58,096 bases of DNA from Candidatus Nealsonbacteria bacterium (GCA_030617105.1 JAUWWC010000002.1:1-58096), one strand, 5' to 3'. Shown: positions 6,181-17,600, counted from the first letter of the stretch. Notes: generated by a model not told the origin, from the sequence alone. Numbers and translations are program-made.

Positions 6181-6319
6181 ATTTCAAAATAAGAAATTGA
6201 TTATTAAACATGTTGCTTTAAACAAAATTTAAATAAACCAAAATTCTGAATTAATTGTTTTCTATAAACTATTCTAACAAACTTTCCAAATTTTTGCAAG
6301 TATAAATAAAAAAAGGCTC

Positions 6320-6529
6320 TCAAGATGGAGCCCTTTTCTTCCTATAGAAAATATGATAAGGCATATAACCTATGGGAAACCAAAAAACAAGTGCTAAAAT
6401 AACCACTAAAATCCAAGATGAAAAATAAACTAAGCTGCTCTCTGGTTTAAGAAGCGCTTCAACAAGTACTGCAATAAATCCAGCAAAAAAAACTAACCAC
6501 CCAAGCCAAATTCTTGTTTTTCTAGTCAT
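6320..6529 (-). CDS. Small membrane protein, unknown function
   Basis: 69 aa with two hydrophobic helices. No recognisable motif. Confidence 0.4.
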   Translation of the reverse strand: MTRKTRIWLGWLVFFAGFIAVLVEALLKPESSLVYFSSWILVVILALVFWFPIGYMPYHIFYRKKRAPS

Positions 6530-6579
6530 TTTGAAATTCCTTTCAATTATTTGATTGTTAAGTTACTATGTTTAAATTT

Positions 6580-7179
6580 TTATTTCGCTCCTATCACTTC
6601 ATCAATGATTCCATATTCTTTAGCTTCCTGGGCTGATAAGTAAAAATCTCGATCAGTGTCTTTTTCTACTTTTTCCAATGATTGACCAGTATGTTTTGCT
6701 ATAATCTGATTTAATTTGTTTTTAATTTTAATAATCTGCTTGGCAGTAATCTCAATCTCTACTGCCTGACCTGTAACTCCTCCTGCTATTTGATGAAGCA
6801 AAACTTCAGTATTAGGCAAAGCAAAACGTTTGCCTCTTTCTCCAGCAGCTAATAGAACAGCGCCCATTGAACCAGCTAAGCCAAAACAAATAGTATCAAT
6901 CGGGCATTTAATATACCGCATAGTATCGTAAATTGCCAAACCAGCGGTAACAGAACCTCCTGGGGTATTGACATATAGCTGGATGTCTTTTTTGGGATCC
7001 TCGCTAGCTAAAAAGAGCATCTGGGCAATAACTAAATTAGCCAATGTATCAGTAATTGGCCCGGCTAAAAAAATAATTCTTTCTTTTAGCAATCTTGAAT
7101 AAATATCGTAAGCTCTTTCTCCATGTTTTGTTTTTTCTAAAACAGTTGGAATAAGATTCATATTATTAAAAGTTTTCAA
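6580..7179 (-). CDS. clpP: ATP-dependent Clp protease proteolytic subunit
   Basis: [18 protein letters not shown], catalytic-Ser context [14 protein letters not shown], and HQIAGG. Confidence 0.95.
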
Positions 7180-8299
7180 GTAATTGAAATATTTTCTCTA
7201 TTTTCTCTGCTTCTTGAGTATACTCCTTTATTTCCTTGGAGTCAAGTTCTCTCTTGCCAATCTCTCTTAATATTAAGAAGCTTTTTACTTTTTTCTGAGC
7301 TTGGGGAAGAAAGGAATCCATTAATTCCTTTTCTGTCTTTCCCAGTTTCTTTAAATAATCATGAAAAGGGATTTTTAATCTTTCAGAAACCATTTTTTTA
7401 AGATTCTCCAAGGTCTGTTTTTGTTCGTTTGTAATTAAAGCATCCGGGATTTCAACTTTTGTTTTCTCGCTTATTCTCTGTAAAATCTCCTGTCTTGCTC
7501 TTATGCGCTCTGCCTGTTCTTTTTCTAAAACAAGGCCTTGTTTAATGTTCTTTTTAAGAGCGTCTAAATTCTCAAGCTTAGCTGCACTTTTGGCAAATTC
7601 ATCATTAATTTCAGCAAGTTCTACATTTTGAACTGAAATTACTTTAAGCTTAAGAATAATGTCTTTACCATCTTTGCTTAAAGTAATGTTTTCTTTTTCC
7701 TGTCCAGCTCTCATTCCAATAATTTCTTGCTCAAACCCAGGAAGAAAATGACCCTGTCCTAAAATAAAAGTATCTTTCCTTCCTAAATATTCAATTTCCA
7801 CAAAATCTCCTTTTTGAGCTGGCTGGTTTTTTACAGTAAGTTTTGCCCTTGATTTCTGGAGCCATGCCAAAGCAGTTTCAACTTCTTTATCCTCCACCTT
7901 AATTTCTCTCCTTTTAACCTTAGAAGCAATCTTTTTGTAATCAGGCAGCTTTATCTCTGGTAAAACTGCTGTTTTAGCTGAGAATATAAAAGGATTTCCC
8001 TGTGCTAATTTCTTAATTTCAATTTTTGGCTGAAATATAGCTTCAATTTTATTCTCCAAAACTACCTTCCTATAATTCTCTTCAACTGTCAAATTAGCAG
8101 CTTCAACTAATATTTTTTCTGAGCCAACGTGCTCTTCAATGATTTCTTTTGGCGCCTTGCCTTTTCTAAAACCCTTAATCTCTAAATCCTTGCCTAAATT
8201 CAAAGTCGCTTTTTCAATAAAGCGACTAAACTCTTGAGCAGGCACCTCAATCTCAAGCTCAATTTGAGATTGAGGTAATTTATTAACCTTTACCTGCAT
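7166..8299 (-). CDS. tig: Trigger factor (short form)
   Basis: N-terminal ribosome-binding signature GFRKGKAP. Sits upstream of clpP, the classical tig-clpP order. Confidence 0.85.
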
Positions 8300-8825
8300 A
8301 TTTCTTCACTGCTTTCTTAATTATCTCCTTGGCTTTTTCTTTTCCTTCCCAACCCTTTATTTTAACAAACTTGTATTTTTCTTTCTCCAACTTCTTATAA
8401 TCAGCGAAGAAAGTTTCTATTTCTTTTTTAAGATGTTCCTCAAGGTCTTCTATTTTCTGAATCTCCTTAAATCGAGGATCAACTTTTTCTAAAGGGACAG
8501 CCACAACTTTATTATCAATTCCTGCTTCGTCTTGCATTAAAAGCACTCCTATTGGACGAGCCGAAATAACGCATCCTGGAAAGGTGGAATAAGTAGTAAG
8601 AAGAACAACATCTAATGAATCGCCGTCTTCAGATATTGTCTGTGGAATAAAACCATATTCAAATGGAAAAAACATAGAGGAATAAAGCGTCCTGTCTAAT
8701 TTAAAATATCCTTTATCTTTTTCATATTCATATTTATTTTCTGAACCCTTAGGAATATCTACTACTACATTAATTTTGTCTGGTGGATTTTCTCCAGAAG
8801 GGATATCCCTAAATAAATTAGTCAT
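8283..8825 (-). CDS. ppa: Inorganic pyrophosphatase (family I)
   Basis: IPKGSENKYEYEK, YGFIPQT, DGDSLDVVLL. Confidence 0.9.
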   Translation of the reverse strand: MTNLFRDIPSGENPPDKINVVVDIPKGSENKYEYEKDKGYFKLDRTLYSSMFFPFEYGFIPQTISEDGDSLDVVLLTTYSTFPGCVISARPIGVLLMQDEAGIDNKVVAVPLEKVDPRFKEIQKIEDLEEHLKKEIETFFADYKKLEKEKYKFVKIKGWEGKEKAKEIIKKAVKKYAGKG

Positions 8826-8848
8826 AATATAAAATATGTTAATTTAAG

Positions 8849-8877
8849 ATTATATGTTTATTACCTTAGCGAATCAA
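8849..8877 (-). promoter_or_regulatory. Sigma70-like promoter upstream of ppa (TTGATT-N17-TATAAT)
   Basis: Read on the minus strand. It is part of an ~80-nt element that recurs at 41528-41607. Confidence 0.5.
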
Positions 8878-8900
8878 GGTTCTCGCCGAAGGCGAGGTTC

Positions 8901-10124
8901 TTATTTTGATTTCTTCTCGACCTTTTCTTTTTTTGCTTTTGTTTTCTTCTCCTTCTTTTCTTCCTTTGGTTTTTCTTTCTTGCCCTTTTCCTCTTCTTCT
9001 TTTTTCTCTTCTCCTCCTTCTGCACTTCTTACATCTATTTTCCAACCAGTGAGTTTAGCTGCTAATCTCACATTCTGGCCCTCTTTACCAATAGCTAAAG
9101 ACAATTGGTCTTCAGGAACTAAGCAAAGGGCTTTGCCTTTTGGCATAATTTTTACTTCCAAAACCTTGGCTGGAGAAAGAGAGTTAGCAATAAATTCTTC
9201 TGAATTATCAGAATATTCAATAATATCAATCTTTTCTCCTCCTAACTCGTTTATTATTGCCATTACTCTTGTTCCGCGTTGTCCAACCGCACTCCCAATT
9301 GGATCAATACCTTCTTCTTTTGATTCTACAGCAATCTTTGAACGAGCACCTGGCTCTCTGGCGATTGATTTAATCACTACTTGACCTTGAGAAATCTCTG
9401 GAACTTCTAATTCAAAAAGCTTAGAAACTAATTTTGGATAAGCGCGGGATAAAAACACAGCAGGTCCTTTTGGAGTATCCTCAACTTTAAGAATGTAAAA
9501 CTTTAATCTCTGGCCTGGTTTATAGAATTCTGCAAAGATTTGCTCTTCTTTTGGCAAAATCCCTAATGTCTTTCCAATATCAACGAAGATATTTCTTCCT
9601 TCTACTCTCTGGATAATGCCAGAGACAATCTCTCCTTCTTTTGACTTGTACTCATCAAAGATTGTTTCTCTTTCTGCTTCTCTAATCTTCTGCAAAATCA
9701 CTTGCTTTGCTGTTTGAGCAGCTATACGGCCATAATCCTTTTTGGCTTGCAAAGGAAGCTCTAGTTCTTGTTCTGGTTTAATGCTTGATTTTTTCTTCTT
9801 TGCCTCCTTTAACATAATATGTCTTTCCGGGTTAAAACGGATTTTCCTGTCTTCTTCCTTTTCTTCTTTCTGCTCCTCTTTCAATTTCTCCAATTCCTGT
9901 TCAGAGTAAATCATATCTTCAGTAACCACTAACTTTATTTGCCAAAACTTAGCTTTTCCTGTTTTAGGATCAAGCTTTGCTTTAATGAGCTGGCCTTTTT
10001 CACCATAATCCTTTTTATAGGCAGCTGCTATTGCTGTTTCAATGCTCTCAATCACTTTTTCCGCAGCAATCCCCTTTTCTTCAGCAATTTGAGAAATCGC
10101 TGATGTAAAATTCTTCATGTCCAT
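8901..10124 (-). CDS. nusA: Transcription termination/antitermination factor NusA with a Lys/Glu-rich C-terminal tail
   Basis: N-terminal NusA domain, S1-like region (GEIVSGIIQRVE), two KH regions (IGSAVGQRGTRV; AIGKEGQNVRLA). Confidence 0.9.
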   Translation of the reverse strand: MDMKNFTSAISQIAEEKGIAAEKVIESIETAIAAAYKKDYGEKGQLIKAKLDPKTGKAKFWQIKLVVTEDMIYSEQELEKLKEEQKEEKEEDRKIRFNPERHIMLKEAKKKKSSIKPEQELELPLQAKKDYGRIAAQTAKQVILQKIREAERETIFDEYKSKEGEIVSGIIQRVEGRNIFVDIGKTLGILPKEEQIFAEFYKPGQRLKFYILKVEDTPKGPAVFLSRAYPKLVSKLFELEVPEISQGQVVIKSIAREPGARSKIAVESKEEGIDPIGSAVGQRGTRVMAIINELGGEKIDIIEYSDNSEEFIANSLSPAKVLEVKIMPKGKALCLVPEDQLSLAIGKEGQNVRLAAKLTGWKIDVRSAEGGEEKKEEEEKGKKEKPKEEKKEKKTKAKKEKVEKKSK

Positions 10125-10232
10125 AGTTTTAAAAAAGTCCGTTTTCCAACGGACAAATAATCATTATCTTCCTTACTAATTTCATCCTATCAAAACAGAA
10201 CTCTTTGTCAACCCCCATGAACTTCTTTTTGT

Positions 10233-10664
10233 TTAAAGAGTTAAGCTCCTTTTTAATTCTTTATGGAAATATTGAGAGAATTTTTTAATGTATTGTAAAT
10301 CTGTAGTATAGAAAAATCTTCTCTTGTTTTTGCTATCAACAGCAAAAAGTAGTTTTTTACCATCTATTAAAAGCATTCTTTTATAATTTTTGCTTTTTAC
10401 CAAAATACATTTATAATTATTGTCTCTTATTTTATGCCTTTTATTAAATCTTTTAAAATCAGCGACAGTTCCAAAAGCTAATCTTGTAATTCTTACTCCT
10501 TGTTTCATCTTTTTATCAAGCAAAAAAAAGTACTCTGAAGGAAGAGGACTCTCGATTTCTTCAGCTAAATCCATCGTAACTAACAGCTCTTGTTTAGCTG
10601 ATTTTACAATAGAGATTGCCTTTTGAAGAATATTCGATTGTTCTATTTCCTTAAGAGTACTCAT
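10233..10664 (-). CDS. Hypothetical protein, co-transcribed with the T-box-controlled gene
   Basis: Starts 4 nt after the stop of 10669-12117. No motif that I can name with confidence. Confidence 0.45.
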   Translation of the reverse strand: MSTLKEIEQSNILQKAISIVKSAKQELLVTMDLAEEIESPLPSEYFFLLDKKMKQGVRITRLAFGTVADFKRFNKRHKIRDNNYKCILVKSKNYKRMLLIDGKKLLFAVDSKNKRRFFYTTDLQYIKKFSQYFHKELKRSLTL

Positions 10665-10668
10665 ATTT

Positions 10669-12117
10669 TTATTTTACAAACATGAAGCGAAAAACATGAA
10701 GTCGTGGTCCACTATCGCTGGTAAGAATAAGATTTTGTGGACAAGCAGGAATTAAACGCAGCTTGATTTGTGGTATTCCATTATATCGTCCTATTCTTGT
10801 GTTAAGTATACGCCACGAATGTAGAGAACGACGGAAAATAGGAACTATCTCAAAATCAATATCTGCATTTATTATATCAGAATTAACACCATACCCACAA
10901 AGCAACTTTTCCAATCGATGCCATATCTTAAATACTGCATCATCGTTTTTAGGCATAGAACGAATAATATCTAAAAACTGATGATGATATTTAGATGGCA
11001 CCGTTACCTCTTGAAGTCCGGTAATATTCTGACATATCCTTTGAAAAAAGGGGTTTGGGTAAAATGTAAGCTCTTTGCTACAATGCTTATCAAAAACAAT
11101 TTTTGATTGTCCATCTTGATAATCAACATTCAAAAGAATCACTTTTTGACCAATAGGAATTCTATCGACCTGAGAAATAGAATATATATTTAATTCTACT
11201 CCGTGCCGACTTAATCCCTTTTTTAGGCTTTCCATCTCCATAAGCTCAAGAATATCTTCTTGGTTTTCTAATACTTGGTTGCGAGTAACTATCGCTATTT
11301 GTTTGCTATTAATATTGTCAACTAATACTCTACAAACAACCTTTTGAAGCGAACCAACTATTTTCTGAACTAATGGAAGAATTTTAGAAAAAGGGCTGTG
11401 AATTTCGTTCAAAAACATTCCTACGTCTGGACAATTAATTTGCTCAACTGTCACTGTTCCATCTGAAAGAATGAAAACGTCTGCCTGACAGTAAAGTAAA
11501 TTGTCTACTTGACAACATCCAGAATATTTTTTTTCCTCTTCGCTTGCTCTTTTAATAACGTCCTGAAGCAAAACATTTACTAAATTGCTTACACGTTTGA
11601 TTAAATCTTGACCAAAAACAATTTCCTTGTTCGGAAGTGCCGGTCTAATCAAAAAGAAAGGTGCTCGTCCTTTGTCTGCTCTTCTTGTGGATCCGATTCG
11701 CTGAAGCATCTCATCAACCTTTCTAAGATTAAATGCATTGAACTCTCTTTGAACCGATTCAACTATTTTTTGATCAGACAAATAGTAAGCTTCTGGAATA
11801 GCCAATCCTTCTTCTTTACAAATCTTTCTCACTGATAAGTCAGTGTTAGAATGATTCGGGTTTATATAAAATGGAAGAAAATTACCAGCCATTCCTTGAT
11901 CCGTTTTAAGAACAGGGCGATAGAAACCAACGCCTCTCATCATTTGTTTCAAATACGTGATATCGCTTGGAAAAAATGCCTCCAATAATTCTATCATGGG
12001 TTTTTTGCGAAGTTTCTTAAGCTCCGTATTTAATTCAACAACATCGTTTGTAACGTAAAGATGGTTTAAACCAACGCTCGCTGACTTAATCCTACCGCCA
12101 ATAGGCACTAATCTCAT
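10669..12117 (-). CDS. Hypothetical protein, possible ATP-grasp-superfamily amide ligase (glutathionylspermidine-synthase-like / circularly permuted type, tentative)
   Basis: ADVFILSDGTVTVEQINCPDVGMF resembles the Mg/ATP-binding strand-loop (..D...dG....E.N..P.) of ATP-grasp ligases. There is a strong SD (GAAGGGAG) 7 nt before the ATG. A T-box leader lies directly upstream. Confidence 0.35.
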   Translation of the reverse strand: MRLVPIGGRIKSASVGLNHLYVTNDVVELNTELKKLRKKPMIELLEAFFPSDITYLKQMMRGVGFYRPVLKTDQGMAGNFLPFYINPNHSNTDLSVRKICKEEGLAIPEAYYLSDQKIVESVQREFNAFNLRKVDEMLQRIGSTRRADKGRAPFFLIRPALPNKEIVFGQDLIKRVSNLVNVLLQDVIKRASEEEKKYSGCCQVDNLLYCQADVFILSDGTVTVEQINCPDVGMFLNEIHSPFSKILPLVQKIVGSLQKVVCRVLVDNINSKQIAIVTRNQVLENQEDILELMEMESLKKGLSRHGVELNIYSISQVDRIPIGQKVILLNVDYQDGQSKIVFDKHCSKELTFYPNPFFQRICQNITGLQEVTVPSKYHHQFLDIIRSMPKNDDAVFKIWHRLEKLLCGYGVNSDIINADIDFEIVPIFRRSLHSWRILNTRIGRYNGIPQIKLRLIPACPQNLILTSDSGPRLHVFRFMFVK

Positions 12118-12180
12118 TTTAAATCTCCCTTCATGTCTATATTTTGTTAATGTACTTTTCTAAAGAACAATTAAGAAGTA

Positions 12181-12416
12181 ATAAAAAACTTCTCATCTCT
12201 GGTATCTACTTAAAGTAAATAACAGGGACGAGAAGTTTCCCGCGGTGCCACCTTGATTTCCCGCCAAGGCGGGACTACTCACTGACTCAATTAAGAAGCA
12301 GTTATCCTCTGGTTACGGAGGAAGCCGGGCTTCCACTATTGCAGAAGCCATCTCCTCGGGCCCAACCTCTCGTTAAACGAGAGACCCGATTCATAGATTT
12401 TAGTAATTTTCAAAGA
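12181..12416 (-). promoter_or_regulatory. T-box riboswitch leader (tRNA-sensing transcription attenuator)
   Basis: Minus strand, in order: Stem-I-like hairpin GGCUUC-UGCAAUAGUG-GAAGCC (12349-12328); GUAACC; Stem III CCCGCC-UUG-GCGGG (12273-12260); T-box sequence AAAUCAAGGUGGCACCGCGGG (12259-12239); terminator arms AACUUCUCGUCCCUG (12237-12223) and CCAGAGAUGAGAAGUU (12202-12187); then UUUUUU. Confidence 0.8.
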
Positions 12417-12423
12417 TATTTCA

Positions 12424-12452
12424 ATAATAGCAAACCCAACAAGCTTGTCAAC
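12424..12452 (-). promoter_or_regulatory. Sigma70-like promoter of the T-box leader (TTGACA-N17-TATTAT)
   Basis: Consensus -35 at 12452-12447 and -10 at 12429-12424 on the minus strand, immediately after the receiver gene stop. Confidence 0.6.
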
Positions 12453-12460
12453 CCTTCAGG

Positions 12461-12850
12461 TCAAGCCCCCAACTTCTTTTTAACTAATTCAGCCAAGTTG
12501 CTGGGAGTATATTTTGTCTTAAGAAGATATCTTTCAGCTTTAAGAAGAAGTCCTTTTTCTTTTAATTGTTCATCTGTATAATTGGTCAGGATAAAAACAG
12601 GTATATCTTTTGTCTTCTCATGCTTTCTAATCTCTTTTAAAACGTCAACACCATTTATATCTGGAAGAAGAAGATCAAGCAAAACCAAATCTGGCTTCAT
12701 TGCTTCCCCCCTTTCTACTTCTTGCATTCTTCTAATTGCCTCTTGACCCAAAAGGATAGGGTCAACATCAAAGCCAGCTTGTTCCAAAGCTGTCTTGTAA
12801 ACATCAATAGTTGGTAAATCATCTTCAACAAATAGAATCGTTTTCTTCAT
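12461..12850 (-). CDS. Stand-alone response regulator receiver (CheY-like), orphaned
   Basis: VEDD, DLVLLDLLLPD, ILTN..K. Paralog of 2693-3061. Only a kinase fragment lies upstream. Confidence 0.85.
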   Translation of the reverse strand: MKKTILFVEDDLPTIDVYKTALEQAGFDVDPILLGQEAIRRMQEVERGEAMKPDLVLLDLLLPDINGVDVLKEIRKHEKTKDIPVFILTNYTDEQLKEKGLLLKAERYLLKTKYTPSNLAELVKKKLGA

Positions 12851-12875
12851 ACTAGTTTAGTTTAGTAAATTTTAA

Positions 12876-13037
12876 TCAAATTGGCAACTCAATAAAGAAT
12901 GCGCTGCCTTTGCCCTCTCCTTCTGACTCTGCCCAGATTTCACCATGATGAGCTCTAATAATATGACCAGTTATATATACTCCTATGCCTCTTCCAAACC
13001 CATGAACCTTTTTTGCTGTTTTTTTTGTTAGAGAAAA
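12876..13037 (-). pseudogene. 3'-terminal fragment of a sensor histidine kinase gene (HATPase_c G2 box to stop only)
   Basis: The open frame with no start codon reads ..AKKVHGFGRGIGVYITGHIIRAHHGEIWAESEGEGKGSAFFIELPI*. This aligns with the C-terminus of the intact kinase at 16464-17600 (..AKRIHGAGKGIGLYITGHIIKAHNGRIWAESEGEDKGSTFFIELPVG*). The DNA shares a 26-nt identical block. Confidence 0.8.
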
Positions 13038-13099
13038 TTATTGAAAAATTATAATTTCTTTGCTATGCTATAATTAAACAGTTTAGAATTATAAAATCT

Positions 13100-13522
13100 A
13101 TGAAGTGTATATTCTGTAAAATTGTAAAAAAAGAATTGCCCTGTTCAAAGGTTTACGAAGACAAAGACTTTCTCGCCCTTATGGATATAAAACCTATTAA
13201 TAAGGGACATGTTTTAGTTATCCCTAAAAAACACTCTGAATTGATTTCTGAAATGAATAAAACTGATATAAGCAAAATGATGGTAGTGGCTGAAAAAATC
13301 AGCTCGGCAATTAGAAAATCGAGGATAAGATGCAGAGGAATTAATTTTTTCTTAGCTGATGGAAGGACGGCCGGACAAGAAGTTCTTCATGTCCATTTGC
13401 ACGTCATTCCACGATTTTTGAACGATGGATTCGGGTTTAAGTTTCCGGATAATTACGGGGACAAACCTTCAAAAAAAGAGTTAGAACGCTTGGCTGAAAA
13501 AATTAAACGAGGATTAGACTAA
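13100..13522 (+). CDS. HIT (histidine triad) family nucleotide hydrolase/transferase
   Basis: CIFCKI, NKGHVLVIPK, and the histidine triad HVHLHVIPR. Confidence 0.9.
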   Translation: MKCIFCKIVKKELPCSKVYEDKDFLALMDIKPINKGHVLVIPKKHSELISEMNKTDISKMMVVAEKISSAIRKSRIRCRGINFFLADGRTAGQEVLHVHLHVIPRFLNDGFGFKFPDNYGDKPSKKELERLAEKIKRGLD

Positions 13523-13575
13523 AATTATATAAGCAAACAAACCCCGATGCCTAATATCGAGAGTTTAATGCCTGC

Positions 13576-13602
13576 CACCCTTGACAGAGAAGGGTGTTTT
13601 TT
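13576..13602 (+). terminator. Intrinsic terminator after the HIT gene
   Basis: CACCCTT-gacagag-AAGGGTG followed by TTTTTT. Confidence 0.75.
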
Positions 13603-13669
13603 GTTATATTATCATAGTGCGTCGAGAATGTTTCTCGGCTTTGAAAATTGAATATAGAAAGGAGAAAAA

Positions 13670-15022
13670 ATGTTTAAGAGTACAAAGGCAAGCTATGTTG
13701 GTTTTAAAGACATATTTGGCTATGAAGCAAGACTGCGCGAATTTATAACAGCTAAGATATCCGAAGTTTTTCAGCTTTGGGGATATGACAAAATCGAGCT
13801 TTCTGTTATTGAAAGCATGGATAGTTTCAATGAAAGAATAGTGGGTGGATCGCCGTGGCCCGAATGGAACCAAAAATGTTCCTTCCAAATAGACATTCTC
13901 GATTATGTAGACACGTATAACAGTAAACCTATGTCTAATCGGGCTCTGCTAGTGCCAGAAGGAACTATATCAATATCCCGCTGGTTGGCCAGCCAGATTG
14001 ACATAGGACAAGACTTGCAGGCTGGTTTTCCACTTAAGGTCTACTATGTAGTTAATTGTTTTCGCAATGAGCTTATAACAAACCTATCGGCAACCAAGAC
14101 CAGAAACTTCACACAGATAGGTACAGAAATTATTGGCACTTCGAACCATTATGCGAATCTCGAAACCATTATGTTAGTAACGAACGGACTGGAAACCCTT
14201 GGTGTGCCAAAGAATCATATTAAGATTCGGCTAAGCGATATTCGCATTTTTAATCATCTTTGTAAAAAATGTAAGATTCCCTACCAGGAAAGTATTATTC
14301 TTAAAGAGATATTTGATAGTATTGCCGAGTCACGTGCAAACAACGACGCTAAGCAACTGATCAACAGGCTTGCTAAGGCTAATAAGATTCTATCGGAGCA
14401 TGTGACAGACGTAAAGACTCAAAGTCAATGGGATTTCTGTCTTGCTGGAACCAAACAGTCAATAAATGATGAGGAAGCAATGTTTTTAGAGTGCTCAGAA
14501 ACAGTAAGTGATCTTAATTCTATTGTGAATGAACTCGGTAAACTAAACATTCCAGGGGTAATCGATCTCGCCGTGGTAAGAAGTCATGAATACTACACAG
14601 GCATCGTGTTCGAGATTGACGTCACGGTCGATGACCAGATTATAGTTGAAATTGCAGGTGGAGGCCGCTACAACAAACTTATTAGTAGATTATCCAAGAA
14701 AAATATTGAGGTTCCAGCCGTTGGATTTGCTTTCGGCTTGGAAAGAATTTGCCGTTTGGCGGAGAACTTACAGAAATCTACTAGCTTAGAAACTCGTTTT
14801 TGGCTCGATGAATCTCCAGTAGATATCGTCCTTTATGGCCATAAACCAGCACATCAACTGATTAAGTTAGCGCAACAACTGCGCAAAAACCATAAAAGAG
14901 TCGACATCTACGCGGGCGATAAACCTACCAGCCAAGAAATTAACATCTACGCAGTAAAGAAAAACGCAAAATTAATCCATATAAGAAATGAAAAACAAAC
15001 AACGAAAGGAGATACAATATGA
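13670..15022 (+). CDS. Divergent histidyl-tRNA synthetase-like class II aaRS paralog (HisS/HisZ family) with an anticodon-binding-like C-terminal domain
   Basis: LVPEGT, motif-2-like YYVVNCFRNE...TRNFTQIGTEIIG, HisA-like VVRSHEYYTG, HisB AGGGRYNKL, and FAFGLERI. Strong SD (AAAGGAG). Overlaps the radical SAM gene by 4 nt. Confidence 0.7.
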   Translation: MFKSTKASYVGFKDIFGYEARLREFITAKISEVFQLWGYDKIELSVIESMDSFNERIVGGSPWPEWNQKCSFQIDILDYVDTYNSKPMSNRALLVPEGTISISRWLASQIDIGQDLQAGFPLKVYYVVNCFRNELITNLSATKTRNFTQIGTEIIGTSNHYANLETIMLVTNGLETLGVPKNHIKIRLSDIRIFNHLCKKCKIPYQESIILKEIFDSIAESRANNDAKQLINRLAKANKILSEHVTDVKTQSQWDFCLAGTKQSINDEEAMFLECSETVSDLNSIVNELGKLNIPGVIDLAVVRSHEYYTGIVFEIDVTVDDQIIVEIAGGGRYNKLISRLSKKNIEVPAVGFAFGLERICRLAENLQKSTSLETRFWLDESPVDIVLYGHKPAHQLIKLAQQLRKNHKRVDIYAGDKPTSQEINIYAVKKNAKLIHIRNEKQTTKGDTI

Positions 15023-16449
15023 GCATTCCAAGTGTTTTATTGGTAAATCCACCAATGCTTTTAGAAAAGCCCGACTTCGGTCAGGCGGGCGCCTTATTTT
15101 CGCCAGAAAACCTAAAGATGGCCGCCATCAATCCTGGTTTACTCTCTATTGCTACCTACCTAGACGACAAAGGGATTCCGGTTGTTATCTGTGACCTTTC
15201 AATAACAGAAGATTTTAATGTTCTTCGTCAAATGATAGAAGACATTAAACCAGACGTCATCGGCGTCAGTTCCATGAGTGCTTTTGATTACATCGAGACG
15301 CTTAACTGTCTTAAAATTGCGCTCGAAGAAAGACCGCAAGCTTTGAGAGTAGCTGGCGGCCAACACATAGGAATGTTAGGCACTTCTGCTTTTGTCGATT
15401 CGCCTGAATTACAGGTTCTTGCAAAAGATGAAGGCGAAAAGGCGATGGAAAATATTGTCTCACACATTCAAGATAACCAACCGCTATCTGATATCGCTGG
15501 CATTATAGTCAGAGATGGTACAGAAATACATGACAACTCTGGTATCTCTGAATTAATGATCTTAGACAATATCCCTCCGCTTAAATACGAACTCTATCCT
15601 GAGTTCCGGCAATTTACGCCTTTCGTTGAAGAAAGTCGTGGTTGTCCGGCACGATGTGAGTATTGTACCAGTGTCAGAATGAATCATGGTAAAATCCGCT
15701 ATAAAACTACCGAACACTTTGAGGTTGAAATCAACCGCGCTATAGATCTTTGGGGCAAAGATCATATCTTTGCTATCCTGGCAGCGAGTTTTGGTATGAG
15801 ATCAAAGCCAACTCTTGAACTAGCGAAAGTGTTTAGTCGAACGAATGTGAGATGGACGACAGAATTTCGAGCCGATTGCAATTGGGAAGTTTATCTTGAC
15901 CAGCTATATGAAGCAGGACTTGTTGTCGTTAACGTAGGTATGGAATCGGCTAGTCCCGAGATCCTAATTAACATGAACAAAACTAAGAATCCGAAACATT
16001 ATCTTGCTAAAACGCGCGAACTGGTAAAACGAATTTCTCGAATGCCGAAGTTAGCACTCCGCATTAACGTAATTTTCTATGTCGGCGAAACACCAAAAAC
16101 AATAAAAGAAACGATATCTTTTCTGGTGGAAAATATATATGGAATCGACTCCATTCTTTATTCGCCGGTGTTTGTGACACCTGGTTCGGACTTGGAAAAA
16201 AACTTCCGTAGGTATGAAAAAAAGTACGGAGCACGGCTTATTTCTTCGCCTTATTGGGACCAAAGACGCCTGAAACTCTGTCAGCCATCCAAGTACTTCA
16301 GCTTTGAAGAAAGTGTTTATGTAAGTAACGCTCTCGAGAAAGTCTTTAGTACGCCCGAAGGATGGTTTGCCTCAGAGGCATACCATTATCGCCAAGATCA
16401 TAAAGAGCTTAAACAAACCTTGATTAGTGGCAGATATTCGGGCTCGTAA
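15019..16449 (+). CDS. B12-binding-domain radical SAM protein
   Basis: N-terminal Rossmann-like domain (VVICDL...PDVIGVSSMS) and radical SAM cluster motif CPARCEYC (CxxxCxxC). The ATGA overlap with the upstream gene indicates translational coupling. Confidence 0.85.
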   Translation: MSIPSVLLVNPPMLLEKPDFGQAGALFSPENLKMAAINPGLLSIATYLDDKGIPVVICDLSITEDFNVLRQMIEDIKPDVIGVSSMSAFDYIETLNCLKIALEERPQALRVAGGQHIGMLGTSAFVDSPELQVLAKDEGEKAMENIVSHIQDNQPLSDIAGIIVRDGTEIHDNSGISELMILDNIPPLKYELYPEFRQFTPFVEESRGCPARCEYCTSVRMNHGKIRYKTTEHFEVEINRAIDLWGKDHIFAILAASFGMRSKPTLELAKVFSRTNVRWTTEFRADCNWEVYLDQLYEAGLVVVNVGMESASPEILINMNKTKNPKHYLAKTRELVKRISRMPKLALRINVIFYVGETPKTIKETISFLVENIYGIDSILYSPVFVTPGSDLEKNFRRYEKKYGARLISSPYWDQRRLKLCQPSKYFSFEESVYVSNALEKVFSTPEGWFASEAYHYRQDHKELKQTLISGRYSGS

Positions 16450-16463
16450 AACCTAACATAAAA

Positions 16464-17600
16464 TTATCCAACCGGCAACTCAATAAAGAACGTGCTTCCT
16501 TTATCCTCTCCTTCTGACTCTGCCCAGATTCTACCATTATGGGCTTTGATAATATGACCAGTAATATATAGACCTATGCCTTTGCCTGCTCCATGAATTC
16601 TTTTTGCCTCTTTACCTCTTTCAAAAGTCCTATCAAATAGGGTTTTTATTTGTTCTTTAGGAATACCTGTTCCAGTGTCTTTAACTGCAATTTGAATATT
16701 AGAATCACTAACATTTACTTTTATACTTATTCCTCCTTCACGAGTATATTTTATTCCATTATCAATAATATTAAATAAAGCAACTTTTAGTTTTTCAGGG
16801 TCTGCCTTAATCTTTGGTATCTTTCCTAATTTTTCTAATTTAAGATAAAGGCCTCTGGCTTTAACTTCAAATTGAAGCTCCTCTATTATTTCTTTTAAGA
16901 CAGGCTCAACTTGAACATTTGGTTGGAGAGTAACCACTTCTTTGCCTAATTGAAATTGGGTGATATCTAAAAATTCATTAACTACTTTTATTAATCTTTG
17001 GGTTGAGGTTTGGAACTTTAAAAGAGTTGTTTTAATCTTTGGAGAAAATTTCCCATAAGTGCCGCCAAAAAGCAAATCCAAATACCCAATCATTGACGTC
17101 AGCGGCGTCCTCAAATGATGCTGGGTCGCCATAATAAACTGATTCTTCGCTTCATCTAATCTTTTCAATTCTTTATGAGCCCTCTTTTCCACCTCATAGG
17201 CCTTTTTAATCTCCTTTGTCTGCTCATCGACTTTCTCTTCAAGTTTCTCATTCAATTCTTCTAAGGCCTCTTTGGCTTTTCTTTGAGCAAAATTAGCTTT
17301 GATAATCTTCTCCGTGCTCTTGTTAAAAAAGTAACCATAAGTAATGACTAAAACAAAAATAGAGATAATTACTAATTTTGAAATCTCCCCTTCAATTAAA
17401 AAAGAGAGAGTGAGAAGAAAAAGGATTAAAACCAAACTGATTATTAGATACTGAAAAAACAAGCAATTGTGGAATTTCAATTCACAATACTGACAACGTT
17501 TAGCCGGGGAATAATTAAGACTTTTGACTAACCAGCAATTTTTATTAATATATTCAGGCTTTCCTATTTTTTCTTTTTGAAATTTTTCGTTTTTTTCCAT
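16464..17600 (-). CDS. Sensor histidine kinase (Cys-rich N-terminus, 2 TM helices, coiled coil, HisKA, HATPase_c)
   Basis: H-box MATQHHLRTPLTSM, N-box NIIDNGIKYT, G-boxes DTGTGI and GKGIGL. No receiver gene lies downstream. Confidence 0.9.
   Translation of the reverse strand: MEKNEKFQKEKIGKPEYINKNCWLVKSLNYSPAKRCQYCELKFHNCLFFQYLIISLVLILFLLTLSFLIEGEISKLVIISIFVLVITYGYFFNKSTEKIIKANFAQRKAKEALEELNEKLEEKVDEQTKEIKKAYEVEKRAHKELKRLDEAKNQFIMATQHHLRTPLTSMIGYLDLLFGGTYGKFSPKIKTTLLKFQTSTQRLIKVVNEFLDITQFQLGKEVVTLQPNVQVEPVLKEIIEELQFEVKARGLYLKLEKLGKIPKIKADPEKLKVALFNIIDNGIKYTREGGISIKVNVSDSNIQIAVKDTGTGIPKEQIKTLFDRTFERGKEAKRIHGAGKGIGLYITGHIIKAHNGRIWAESEGEDKGSTFFIELPVG

Follow-up and report, generated by a model that had tools for sequence, protein, structure and literature searches.

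A histidyl-tRNA synthetase paralog linked to a B12-binding radical SAM gene in Candidatus Nealsonbacteria: a candidate for histidine activation outside translation

We analysed a 58,096-nucleotide stretch of DNA from a Candidatus Nealsonbacteria bacterium (GCA_030617105.1, JAUWWC010000002.1:1-58096), hereafter the window, on which positions are counted unless another locus is named. Its G+C content is low (about 0.33-0.40). The subject is a gene at 13670-15022, here called PARA, whose product resembles histidyl-tRNA synthetase (HisRS), an aminoacyl-tRNA synthetase (aaRS); it is followed by a gene for a B12-binding radical S-adenosylmethionine (SAM) enzyme, here called rSAM, and preceded by a gene of the HIT family. 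An earlier model-made note on this DNA (the sequence-only reading) had proposed these three genes and the overlap of the last two, and our coordinates agree with it.

The HIT, PARA and radical SAM genes of the window

The trio and the expression signals around it are the following:

13100-13522, plus strand: HIT (Hint-type) nucleotide hydrolase gene, 140 aa; Pfam HIT PF01230, 89.7 bits
13576-13596, plus strand: terminator-like hairpin followed by TTTTTTGTT, predicted to end the HIT transcript
13581-13610, plus strand: promoter-like site, TTGACA, 18 nt spacer, TG-TATATT; sigma-70-like, 11/12 match, by consensus only
13670-15022, plus strand: PARA, HisRS-like gene, 450 aa; tRNA-synt_His, 128.4 bits
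15019-16449, plus strand: B12-binding radical SAM gene (rSAM), 476 aa; PF04055, 43.9 bits (cut-off 29.5); PF02310 (B12-binding), 38.5 bits (cut-off 32.1), residues 37-146

PARA ends and rSAM begins within the common bases ATGA (ACA ATA TGA / ATG AGC), with an AAGGAG 8 nt ahead of the rSAM start codon; a second AAGGAG stands ahead of the PARA start at 13670. From the overlap and the AAGGAG, translation of rSAM is predicted to be coupled to that of PARA. The promoter-like site is located between HIT and PARA, 60 nt upstream of the PARA start, and because this site and the hairpin with its T-run intervene, the HIT gene appears transcriptionally separable, presumably as a unit of its own. The sequence-only reading had HIT preceding the pair: the linkage itself recurs (see below), and the correction concerns only the transcription unit. 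No riboswitch was detected upstream of PARA at E ≤ 1.

PARA scored 197.8 bits against the hisS equivalog TIGR00442 (cut-off 286.75) and 152.5 bits against hisZ TIGR00443 (cut-off 271.65), and it fell far under the cut-offs of all PRK12292-type models. The best solved HisRS reached merely 54 bits, and identity to the HisRS genes that adjoin PARA orthologs is about 22%, so the description of the protein as strongly diverged was apt. All four motifs on which its kinship had been argued (LVPEGT, FRNE, VVRSHEYY and GGGRYN) are in the translation, with LLVPEGT at residues 93-99, CFRNE at 130-134, VVRSHEYY at 302-309 and GGGRYN at 330-335. PARA has motifs 2 and 3 of the class II enzymes, together with the residues specific for histidine (PEGT loop, HisA Arg/Tyr-Tyr, HisB GGRY). 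When 20 paralogs were compared with five neighbouring HisRS proteins, T99, R132, E134, R145, Q149, R304, Y308, Y309, GGGR 330-333 and R359 were invariant throughout; E97 was invariant within the 20 paralogs, and so was E153 in the paralogs, the neighbouring HisRS genes having Asp at that position. Structural work on HisRS assigns to these positions (T99 in the PEGT loop, R132/E134 in motif 2, R304/Y308/Y309 in HisA, R359 in motif 3 and the remainder) the binding of ATP, of the alpha-amino group and of the imidazole, and stabilisation of the transition state. PARA has the PEGT loop and Q..G.E pattern of bacterial-type HisRS, where the neighbouring HisRS proteins carry RF(E/D)LT and Q.D.D. By this conservation PARA looks competent for histidine activation.

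The 20 PARA members, from 5 phyla and 33-74% identical, share 63 invariant columns. Their signatures are a VGxSPWPEW insertion, PEGTISVSRWL, CFRNE..K.R.F.Q.G.E, DxIAExRAGK, VVRSHEYYT, AGGGRY, GFAFGLER and RVDIYxGD, and the motif-2 loop of PARA is 3 residues longer than that of HisRS. The AlphaFold2 model (pLDDT 87.9) comprises a class II catalytic core and the HisRS insertion domain, and with Foldseek it aligned end to end with HisRS and HisZ structures (E about 1e-23, about 445 columns, TM about 0.6). In the model a C-terminal alpha/beta domain of three strands and two helices occupies residues 386-438. This domain has about 79 residues vs 98 in the neighbouring HisRS, that is, about 20 fewer; it gave no Pfam match to HGTP_anticodon PF03129 and a weak profile-profile match (E = 0.025). 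The charge of the motif-2 loop and of the C-terminal domain, used as a proxy for tRNA binding, does not discriminate. On these comparisons PARA is best assigned to a sharply defined, rare family of HisRS paralogs distinct from the translational HisRS.

In the rSAM protein the motif CPARCEYC fits CxxxCxxC, and C209, C213 and C216 are invariant in 25 homologs; with the two Pfam matches listed above, this assigns it by sequence to the class B (B12-binding-domain) radical SAM enzymes. No equivalog could be assigned: the best NCBIfam match, the PhpK family, scored 83 bits vs a cut-off of 600, and all 22 matches were far below their cut-offs. The closest solved relatives are OxsB (79 bits), CysS, AprD4, TokK and TsrM. 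The protein appears to represent a distinct orphan subclade of cobalamin radical SAM enzymes.

Spread and gene partners of the PARA family

With two signature peptides as queries, 185,579 species, each represented by one genome, yielded only 38 PARA loci. The closest is in a Candidatus Azambacteria metagenome-assembled genome (MAG; 69% identity), which places the window in the Parcubacteria, a group of the candidate phyla radiation (CPR). Within the CPR the family occurs in Azambacteria, Daviesbacteria, Saccharibacteria and Pacebacteria; many Actinobacteria carry it, including Nocardiopsis, Frankia, Kitasatospora, Umezawaea and a Streptomyces plasmid, and so do Planctomycetota, Firmicutes and Acidobacteria. 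A PARA profile search of 1.84 billion representative proteins gave about 85 sequences above 150 bits. Several members are labelled by PGAP as 'ATP phosphoribosyltransferase regulatory subunit', so that NCBI misnames them as HisZ. In the literature we found nothing relevant on the family, or on a HisRS paralog with links to radical SAM enzymes, prenyl synthases or self-resistance.

For a census of partners we took 39 non-redundant PARA loci, called open reading frames (ORFs), classified them with phmmer and counted partners within 6 kb:

Second HisRS (separate, full-length): 31/39 loci
Diverged polyprenyl-synthase-like gene (PF00348, 59-122 bits): 16/39 loci
B12 radical SAM gene of the window's subfamily (one or two genes): 9/39 loci, in four gene orders
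APH-type kinase: 7/39 loci
HIT: 4/39 loci

A RimL-type GNAT adjoins the module in L005, L001 and L026. The prenyl-synthase-like gene and rSAM were never found together (0/39 loci). Two features of this census had escaped the sequence-only reading, namely the second full HisRS as the dominant partner and the polyprenyl-synthase-like gene as an alternative to rSAM. A polyprenyl synthetase domain is encoded in the window as well, at 21315-22856 on the minus strand, as a 513-aa fusion with a NUDIX (IDI-like) domain (200 bits). The prenyl-synthase-like genes of PARA modules differ from it and score weakly; it probably serves housekeeping isoprenoid metabolism.

In the nearest relatives the second HisRS is an ordinary one. 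In three loci with the 69% PARA ortholog (L001, L002 and L003) it lies directly downstream and scores 355 bits on hisS; in L005 and L006 (74% ortholog) and in L007 (49%) a normal HisRS also lies directly downstream, overlapping or a few bases apart, and the HisRS neighbours of PARA orthologs score 298-355 bits on TIGR00442. One Daviesbacteria contig holds PARA, an adjoining diverged HisRS and a third HisRS, the housekeeping copy, at 392 bits, and in the large actinobacterial genomes the family is an extra copy. The claim that PARA is a paralog keeping the residues for histidine and ATP activation is borne out by these 49-74% orthologs next to a true hisS and by the third HisRS of Daviesbacteria. 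Eight loci have no HisRS within 6 kb, including the window, Frankia, Kitasatospora and the Streptomyces plasmid.

Pairwise identities of PARA and of the neighbouring HisRS correlate (r = 0.76, 31 loci), and the Saccharibacteria pair is similar to the Acidobacteria pair (63% identity for PARA, 55% for HisRS). We therefore read PARA and HisRS as travelling jointly between phyla, and the module as horizontally mobile. Some PARA modules sit in mobile or defence-island-like surroundings: in Risungbinella, PARA, the prenyl-synthase-like gene, HisRS and APH lie beside GmrSD and helicase-nuclease genes. PADLOC defence models matched none of PARA, rSAM, the neighbouring HisRS or the prenyl-synthase-like proteins, and gave the HIT protein merely a generic match (ThsC, 54 bits); a known defence system was ruled out on this basis. 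Matches to PHROGs phage families were marginal only.

Two loci have a tRNA-His(GUG) gene immediately ahead: L001 (7816-7888), before PARA, and L012 (1510-1585), before the module. The L001 copy is an ordinary tRNA, with G-1 encoded and C73 present. No tRNA gene stands alongside the rSAM-type modules, and the only tRNA near the modules is this tRNA-His(GUG), at two CPR loci; a dedicated tRNA for a new amino acid was discarded accordingly. As a separate observation, 2.6 kb upstream of the Azambacteria PARA-HisRS pair, at 3843-5408 of L001 (minus strand), there is a radical SAM/SPASM gene with a 39-aa ORF behind it, a pair resembling those of ribosomally synthesised and post-translationally modified peptides. 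This pair was not seen at the other loci.

A metagenome scan with an rSAM profile gave 33 loci. All rSAM homologs of at least 43% identity with enough flanking sequence adjoin PARA and/or HisRS, and more distant ones lie beside glycosyltransferase-like or non-ribosomal peptide synthetase genes, without PARA. The gene orders are:

PARA-rSAM: window type
PARA-HisRS-rSAM
methyltransferase-HisRS-rSAM-PARA-rSAM2: L062
HisRS-rSAM
rSAM-PARA::SAM-MT-HisRS-rSAM2-GNAT (SAM-MT, SAM methyltransferase): L026, a Planctomycetota MAG

At least ten pairs of rSAM and PARA homologs come from contigs of the same size, which is a hint of shared contigs and no proof. By these comparisons the PARA-rSAM pairing is conserved within one rSAM subclade. 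The pairing, which could have been unique to this genome, is instead kept in several lineages that carry PARA and the rSAM subfamily (at least four gene orders, nine of the 39 loci).

In other members PARA is fused to further domains. A C-terminal SAM methyltransferase occurs in four representative clusters, and in Carnobacterium maltaromaticum (L082) a PP-binding domain precedes PARA. This cluster (6287-16695) holds an unknown 320-aa gene, two AMP-binding enzymes, the fusion of peptidyl carrier protein and PARA, a prenyl-synthase-like gene, a HisRS copy and a three-gene ABC exporter, and lies on an element bearing an integrase and Rep; no other version of the module in a culturable organism is as rich or as tractable. 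A simpler set is found in Frankia, with PARA, the prenyl-synthase-like gene and APH and no HisRS. GNAT and ATP-grasp domains stand N-terminal to PARA in a protein from a metagenome and in proteins of two starfish, Asterias amurensis and A. rubens, that are encoded by genes without introns. The starfish proteins (L089, 8001-11351 of A. amurensis CP134956.1; A. rubens XP_033624766) are of the form RimL-type GNAT/ATP-grasp/PARA, 1116 aa, and the gene is probably a horizontal acquisition of the bacterial family by the animal.

The HIT protein of the window has the motif HVHLHVIP (HxHxHxx) and does not reach the cut-offs of the HinT equivalogs. In close relatives (83-96% nucleotide identity) the gene has one of two placements: L052 and L054 are colinear with the window from inside or just after HIT, consistent with HIT-PARA-rSAM, and L050, L051 and L053 have the order PARA-rSAM-HIT. 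In a distant Eubacteriales locus (L035) HIT overlaps PARA. Linkage of HIT to the module thus seems to be conserved though its transcription unit is separate.

The trio is flanked by parts of a two-component system:

12461-12850: response-regulator gene, between the T-box gene (see below) and the trio
12875-13016, minus strand: histidine-kinase 3'-end remnant, abutting the response-regulator gene
16464-17600: intact histidine-kinase gene, downstream of rSAM

The segments 12875-13016 and 16466-16607 (both minus strand, in the same orientation) are identical at 116 of 142 positions (82%), so that the first corresponds to the 3' end of the intact kinase; its frame is open and reads ...GRGIGVYITGHIIRAHHGEIWAESEGEGKGSAFFIELPI before the stop. 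The corresponding stretch of the kinase in a relative, L049, has 90% identity and is found downstream of rSAM. The remnant is the left edge of a rearranged stretch holding HIT, PARA and rSAM, and with the intact kinase on the other side the block therefore lies between the stump and the whole gene. We read these flanks as the likely signature of insertion or recombination within a two-component operon; with the change of side of HIT among close relatives, they count towards mobility of the module.

Proposed function and rival explanations

We consider the finding real and beyond chance, and the core of the sequence-only reading stands: a paralog with the activation residues retained, paired with a B12 radical SAM gene and with HIT close by. 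On the observed gene content, family membership, conserved linkage and rearrangement scar rests a proposal all of whose chemical steps we infer: PARA may activate histidine for a purpose other than translation, feeding an alkylated product, within a horizontally mobile module that includes rSAM and HIT. We give this proposal about an even chance. PARA would bind ATP and histidine (or a close analogue) and form an enzyme-bound aminoacyl-adenylate, because the catalytic and pocket residues of HisRS are fully conserved. The activated amino acid would pass to a non-translational acceptor and not to tRNA-His, as the short anticodon-like domain, the insertions and the fusions suggest. Judging from gene linkage, the cobalamin rSAM would alkylate, most likely C-methylate, a histidine-derived intermediate, and elsewhere a SAM methyltransferase or the polyprenyl-synthase-like enzyme may fill the same slot. 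Precedents are ComQ, a polyprenyl-synthase homolog that prenylates an aromatic side chain, and OxsB, the closest solved rSAM relative, which acts on an adenine nucleotide. From its family chemistry, HIT might hydrolyse stray or toxic (amino)acyl-adenylates, and HIT, GNAT, APH, the exporter and the private HisRS would have protective or supply functions.

Several observations weigh against this proposal. The Azambacteria-type loci hold PARA with HisRS alone, once with tRNA-His upstream, which fits a translation-related role equally well. The window has no second HisRS gene in its 58 kb, so the family's usual partner is missing, and no carrier protein, so the acceptor side is without a candidate. 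HIT and GNAT are common housekeeping genes with small linkage counts (4 and 3 loci). Six of the nine rSAM-linked loci came from the rSAM-directed search, which inflates the count; among the loci selected through PARA only L007 and L026 (2 of about 30) have rSAM. Finally, rSAM has no equivalog match, and chemistry other than methylation is possible for a B12 radical SAM enzyme.

A bolder version, which we regard as rather improbable and which draws on analogy, is that the module both makes, and protects its producer against, an inhibitor of HisRS, namely an aminoacyl-nucleotide (or similar compound) derived from histidine. PARA would supply a scaffold of the histidyl-adenylate type, which rSAM, the SAM methyltransferase or the prenyl-synthase-like enzyme would alkylate into a stable toxic form, and the co-transferred HisRS, HIT, the RimL-type GNAT, the APH kinase and the ABC exporter would be alternative means of self-protection. 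The argument for it is circumstantial: the same devices (MccH, MccE, AgnB2, AbmK) protect producers of aminoacyl-nucleotides. If correct, this would be the first natural 'adenylate mimic' directed at HisRS, made by the first pathway of its kind to have an aaRS paralog at its core, and even minimal CPR genomes would contain it.

The linkage to HisRS and the tRNA-His genes make one alternative a serious rival, even if we hold it to be unlikely: PARA could attach histidine, possibly modified by rSAM, to a tRNA nucleotide or a protein, following by analogy the logic of EpmA/PoxA with EpmB, where a LysRS paralog and a radical SAM enzyme modify EF-P, or of GluQRS, a GluRS paralog that modifies tRNA-Asp. 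From such a system one would expect an aaRS paralog that retains its adenylation residues, has a reduced anticodon-binding domain and is coupled to a radical SAM gene, as PARA is; the HisRS beside PARA in 31/39 loci, the tRNA-His upstream in L001 and L012 and the retention of PARA in very small CPR genomes agree with it. Small-molecule chemistry is suggested instead by the fusions to a carrier protein, to SAM methyltransferase and to GNAT plus ATP-grasp, and likewise by the AMP-binding enzymes, ABC exporter, APH kinase and prenyl-synthase-like neighbours; moreover, no candidate target gene is conserved beside the module, and the distribution is patchy and mobile across phyla. The same tight, often overlapping PARA-HisRS pairs, found in most loci and co-evolving (r = 0.76), would also be expected if PARA were a non-enzymatic or regulatory partner of the neighbouring HisRS, either HisZ-like or in a heterodimer, with the rSAM adjacency secondary. 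HisZ provides the precedent, and its structures are among the best fold matches; yet the adenylate-forming residues of PARA are all invariant, unlike those of HisZ, and eight loci have PARA without HisRS within 6 kb, so we judge a regulatory role quite improbable. HisG (PF01634) was unseen in the annotated loci, specifically among the Pfam-annotated genes within 8-10 kb in L001, L004, L005, L007, L009, L082, L083 and L084 (the rest of the window was not scanned). Identity with HisZ itself was rejected on the score, the retained catalytic residues and this lack of a visible HisG.

It could also be that the adjacency of HIT, PARA and rSAM is a by-product of local rearrangement, without shared function. 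The kinase remnant, the change of side of HIT and the presence of rSAM in only two of the roughly 30 PARA-selected loci speak for this, but the same rSAM subfamily accompanies PARA or HisRS in four orders, with PARA identity down to 34-49%, the two genes overlap at ATGA, and the distant rSAM homologs are without PARA, which limits the link to one subclade; we think a chance neighbourhood very unlikely. The sequence-only reading had itself raised the alternative that PARA is the sole, unusually diverged HisRS of the organism, and the 58-kb window indeed shows no second HisRS, and the catalytic residues are intact. This explanation is now hardly credible and was dropped on ortholog context: orthologs of 49-74% identity coexist with a true hisS next door, the score is under the hisS cut-off, the C-terminal domain is short and without an HGTP_anticodon match, and in Actinobacteria the family is an extra copy.

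As regards the significance of non-translational histidine activation by PARA, the aaRS paralogs taken out of translation (HisZ, EpmA, AsnA, GluQRS, the carrier ligases) each gave new biochemistry. PARA has a complete histidine-activating site, is invariably accompanied by an alkylating enzyme, a private HisRS copy or both, and is found in at least five bacterial phyla and also in starfish. Knowledge of the module's product would establish a new path by which histidine becomes a methylated or prenylated metabolite or modification, would supply the cobalamin radical SAM enzymes of an orphan clade with a substrate, and could account for the retention of PARA in genome-reduced CPR bacteria. If the immunity reading were true, it would also point to an unexplored class of HisRS inhibitors.

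The T-box gene and comparison with known systems

A T-box-controlled gene lies 1.5 kb away on the opposite strand, with the response-regulator gene between it and the trio:

12424-12451, minus strand: promoter-like site of the T-box gene
12221-12403, minus strand: T-box leader RF00230, 62 bits vs a gathering score of 93, E = 1.2e-12
10669-12117, minus strand: 482-aa ORF, downstream of the T-box
10233-10664, minus strand: 143-aa ORF, paired with the 482-aa gene

The leader contains the T-box sequence AAGGUGGCACCGCG and a K-turn, with Stem I shortened to 26 nt, and is a credible T-box even if below the Rfam gathering score. A 51%-identical homolog of the 482-aa gene has a weak T-box-like leader (28 bits), and both leaders share a GUUGGG bulge, in which the specifier probably lies, as UGG (Trp) or UUG (Leu); the gene of a third homolog comes after those for TrpRS and a protein of the Trp-repressor family. 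The 482-aa family is restricted to CPR (85 matching sequences, all unnamed or hypothetical), and a gene of 136-143 aa follows it in each context examined. The protein gave no Pfam (ATP-grasp included), NCBIfam or PDB sequence match. Its AlphaFold2 model (pLDDT 92.6) best matches the tRNA-dependent LanB/PEARL-type glutamylation domains of NisB, MibB and TbtB (TMq 0.39-0.48), and next glutathione synthetase, YgiC and trypanothione synthetase (TMq 0.29-0.34). On the model and the leader, it may be an enzyme that both senses and uses tRNA. Of the T-box-controlled, ATP-grasp-like ligase named in the sequence-only reading, the T-box holds, sub-threshold as it is; the protein has no ATP-grasp Pfam match, and its model is no closer to glutathione-synthetase-type ATP-grasp enzymes (TM 0.30-0.34) than to LanB glutamylation domains (TM 0.47).

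A separate peculiarity of the window is a tRNA gene at 26376-26450 (plus strand, Rfam 53 bits), 10 nt after tRNA-Arg(TCG), with an anticodon arm CCUUC-CUAUUUAG-GAAGG and an 8-nt anticodon loop; ARAGORN reports it as 'tRNA-???' with anticodon ATTT.

The sequence-only reading had also likened PARA, rSAM and the T-box gene, as an analogy, to PylS, PylB and PylC. We abandoned this triad: the 482-aa gene belongs to a CPR family of its own, was never present at the other PARA loci examined, and lies on the other strand behind the response regulator. The pyrrolysine genes have in common with PARA-rSAM only a class II aaRS-type enzyme and a radical SAM enzyme. PylB, unlike rSAM, is without a B12 domain. 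PARA is linked to no homolog of PylC or PylD, the T-box gene is unrelated, and none of the 7 tRNAs of the window is a tRNA(CUA).

PARA has the fold of HisS over its full length and retains motifs 2 and 3, the PEGT loop, HisA Arg/Tyr and HisB GGGRY; it differs in its low identity, in the SPWPEW insertion, in RSHEYY for RGLDYY, in the shorter C-terminal domain and in coexisting with a genuine HisRS. HisZ is likewise a HisRS paralog acting outside translation, and generally lacks the catalytic arginines and the His-AMP residues. PARA, instead, keeps the catalytic Arg and the His-AMP residues, and no HisG neighbour was seen; it is also present in CPR genomes, in which histidine synthesis is not expected.

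The amino acid:[carrier protein] ligases are truncated SerRS homologs that charge a phosphopantetheinyl carrier with an amino acid. Their aaRS lineage is another one, and PARA of the window and most members have no carrier domain or gene nearby; the Carnobacterium PARA, with its N-terminal PP-binding domain and AMP-binding enzymes, is like these ligases.

In the Trojan horse clusters for aaRS inhibitors (microcin C, agrocin 84, albomycin), self-immunity is provided by the HIT hydrolase MccH, RimL/MccE-type GNATs, the extra aaRSs AgnB2 and AbmK, and exporters (PMC7157772, PMC8323819). All four kinds recur around PARA. Adenylation there is by MccB-type adenylyltransferases, whereas here an aaRS paralog is present, and no precursor peptide was seen near PARA. 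A review of aminoacyl-nucleotide inhibitors describes no histidyl-directed compound.

The cobalamin radical SAM enzymes OxsB, Fom3, TsrM, TokK and CysS share the N-terminal B12 domain and CxxxCxxC with rSAM of the window, which differs in having no equivalog match and in forming a distinct subclade linked to PARA/HisRS at 43% identity and above. The closest known logic is that of EpmA/EpmB. There an aaRS paralog that has kept its adenylation chemistry, but has no functional anticodon domain, is paired with a radical SAM enzyme that tailors the amino acid; PARA-rSAM likewise combines an aaRS paralog with conserved adenylation residues and a radical SAM gene. The differences are that EpmA derives from LysRS, that EpmB is a pyridoxal-phosphate aminomutase without a B12 domain and that EF-P is not linked to PARA. 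Set among these systems, PARA-rSAM with HIT would join the aaRS paralogs recruited to non-translational chemistry.

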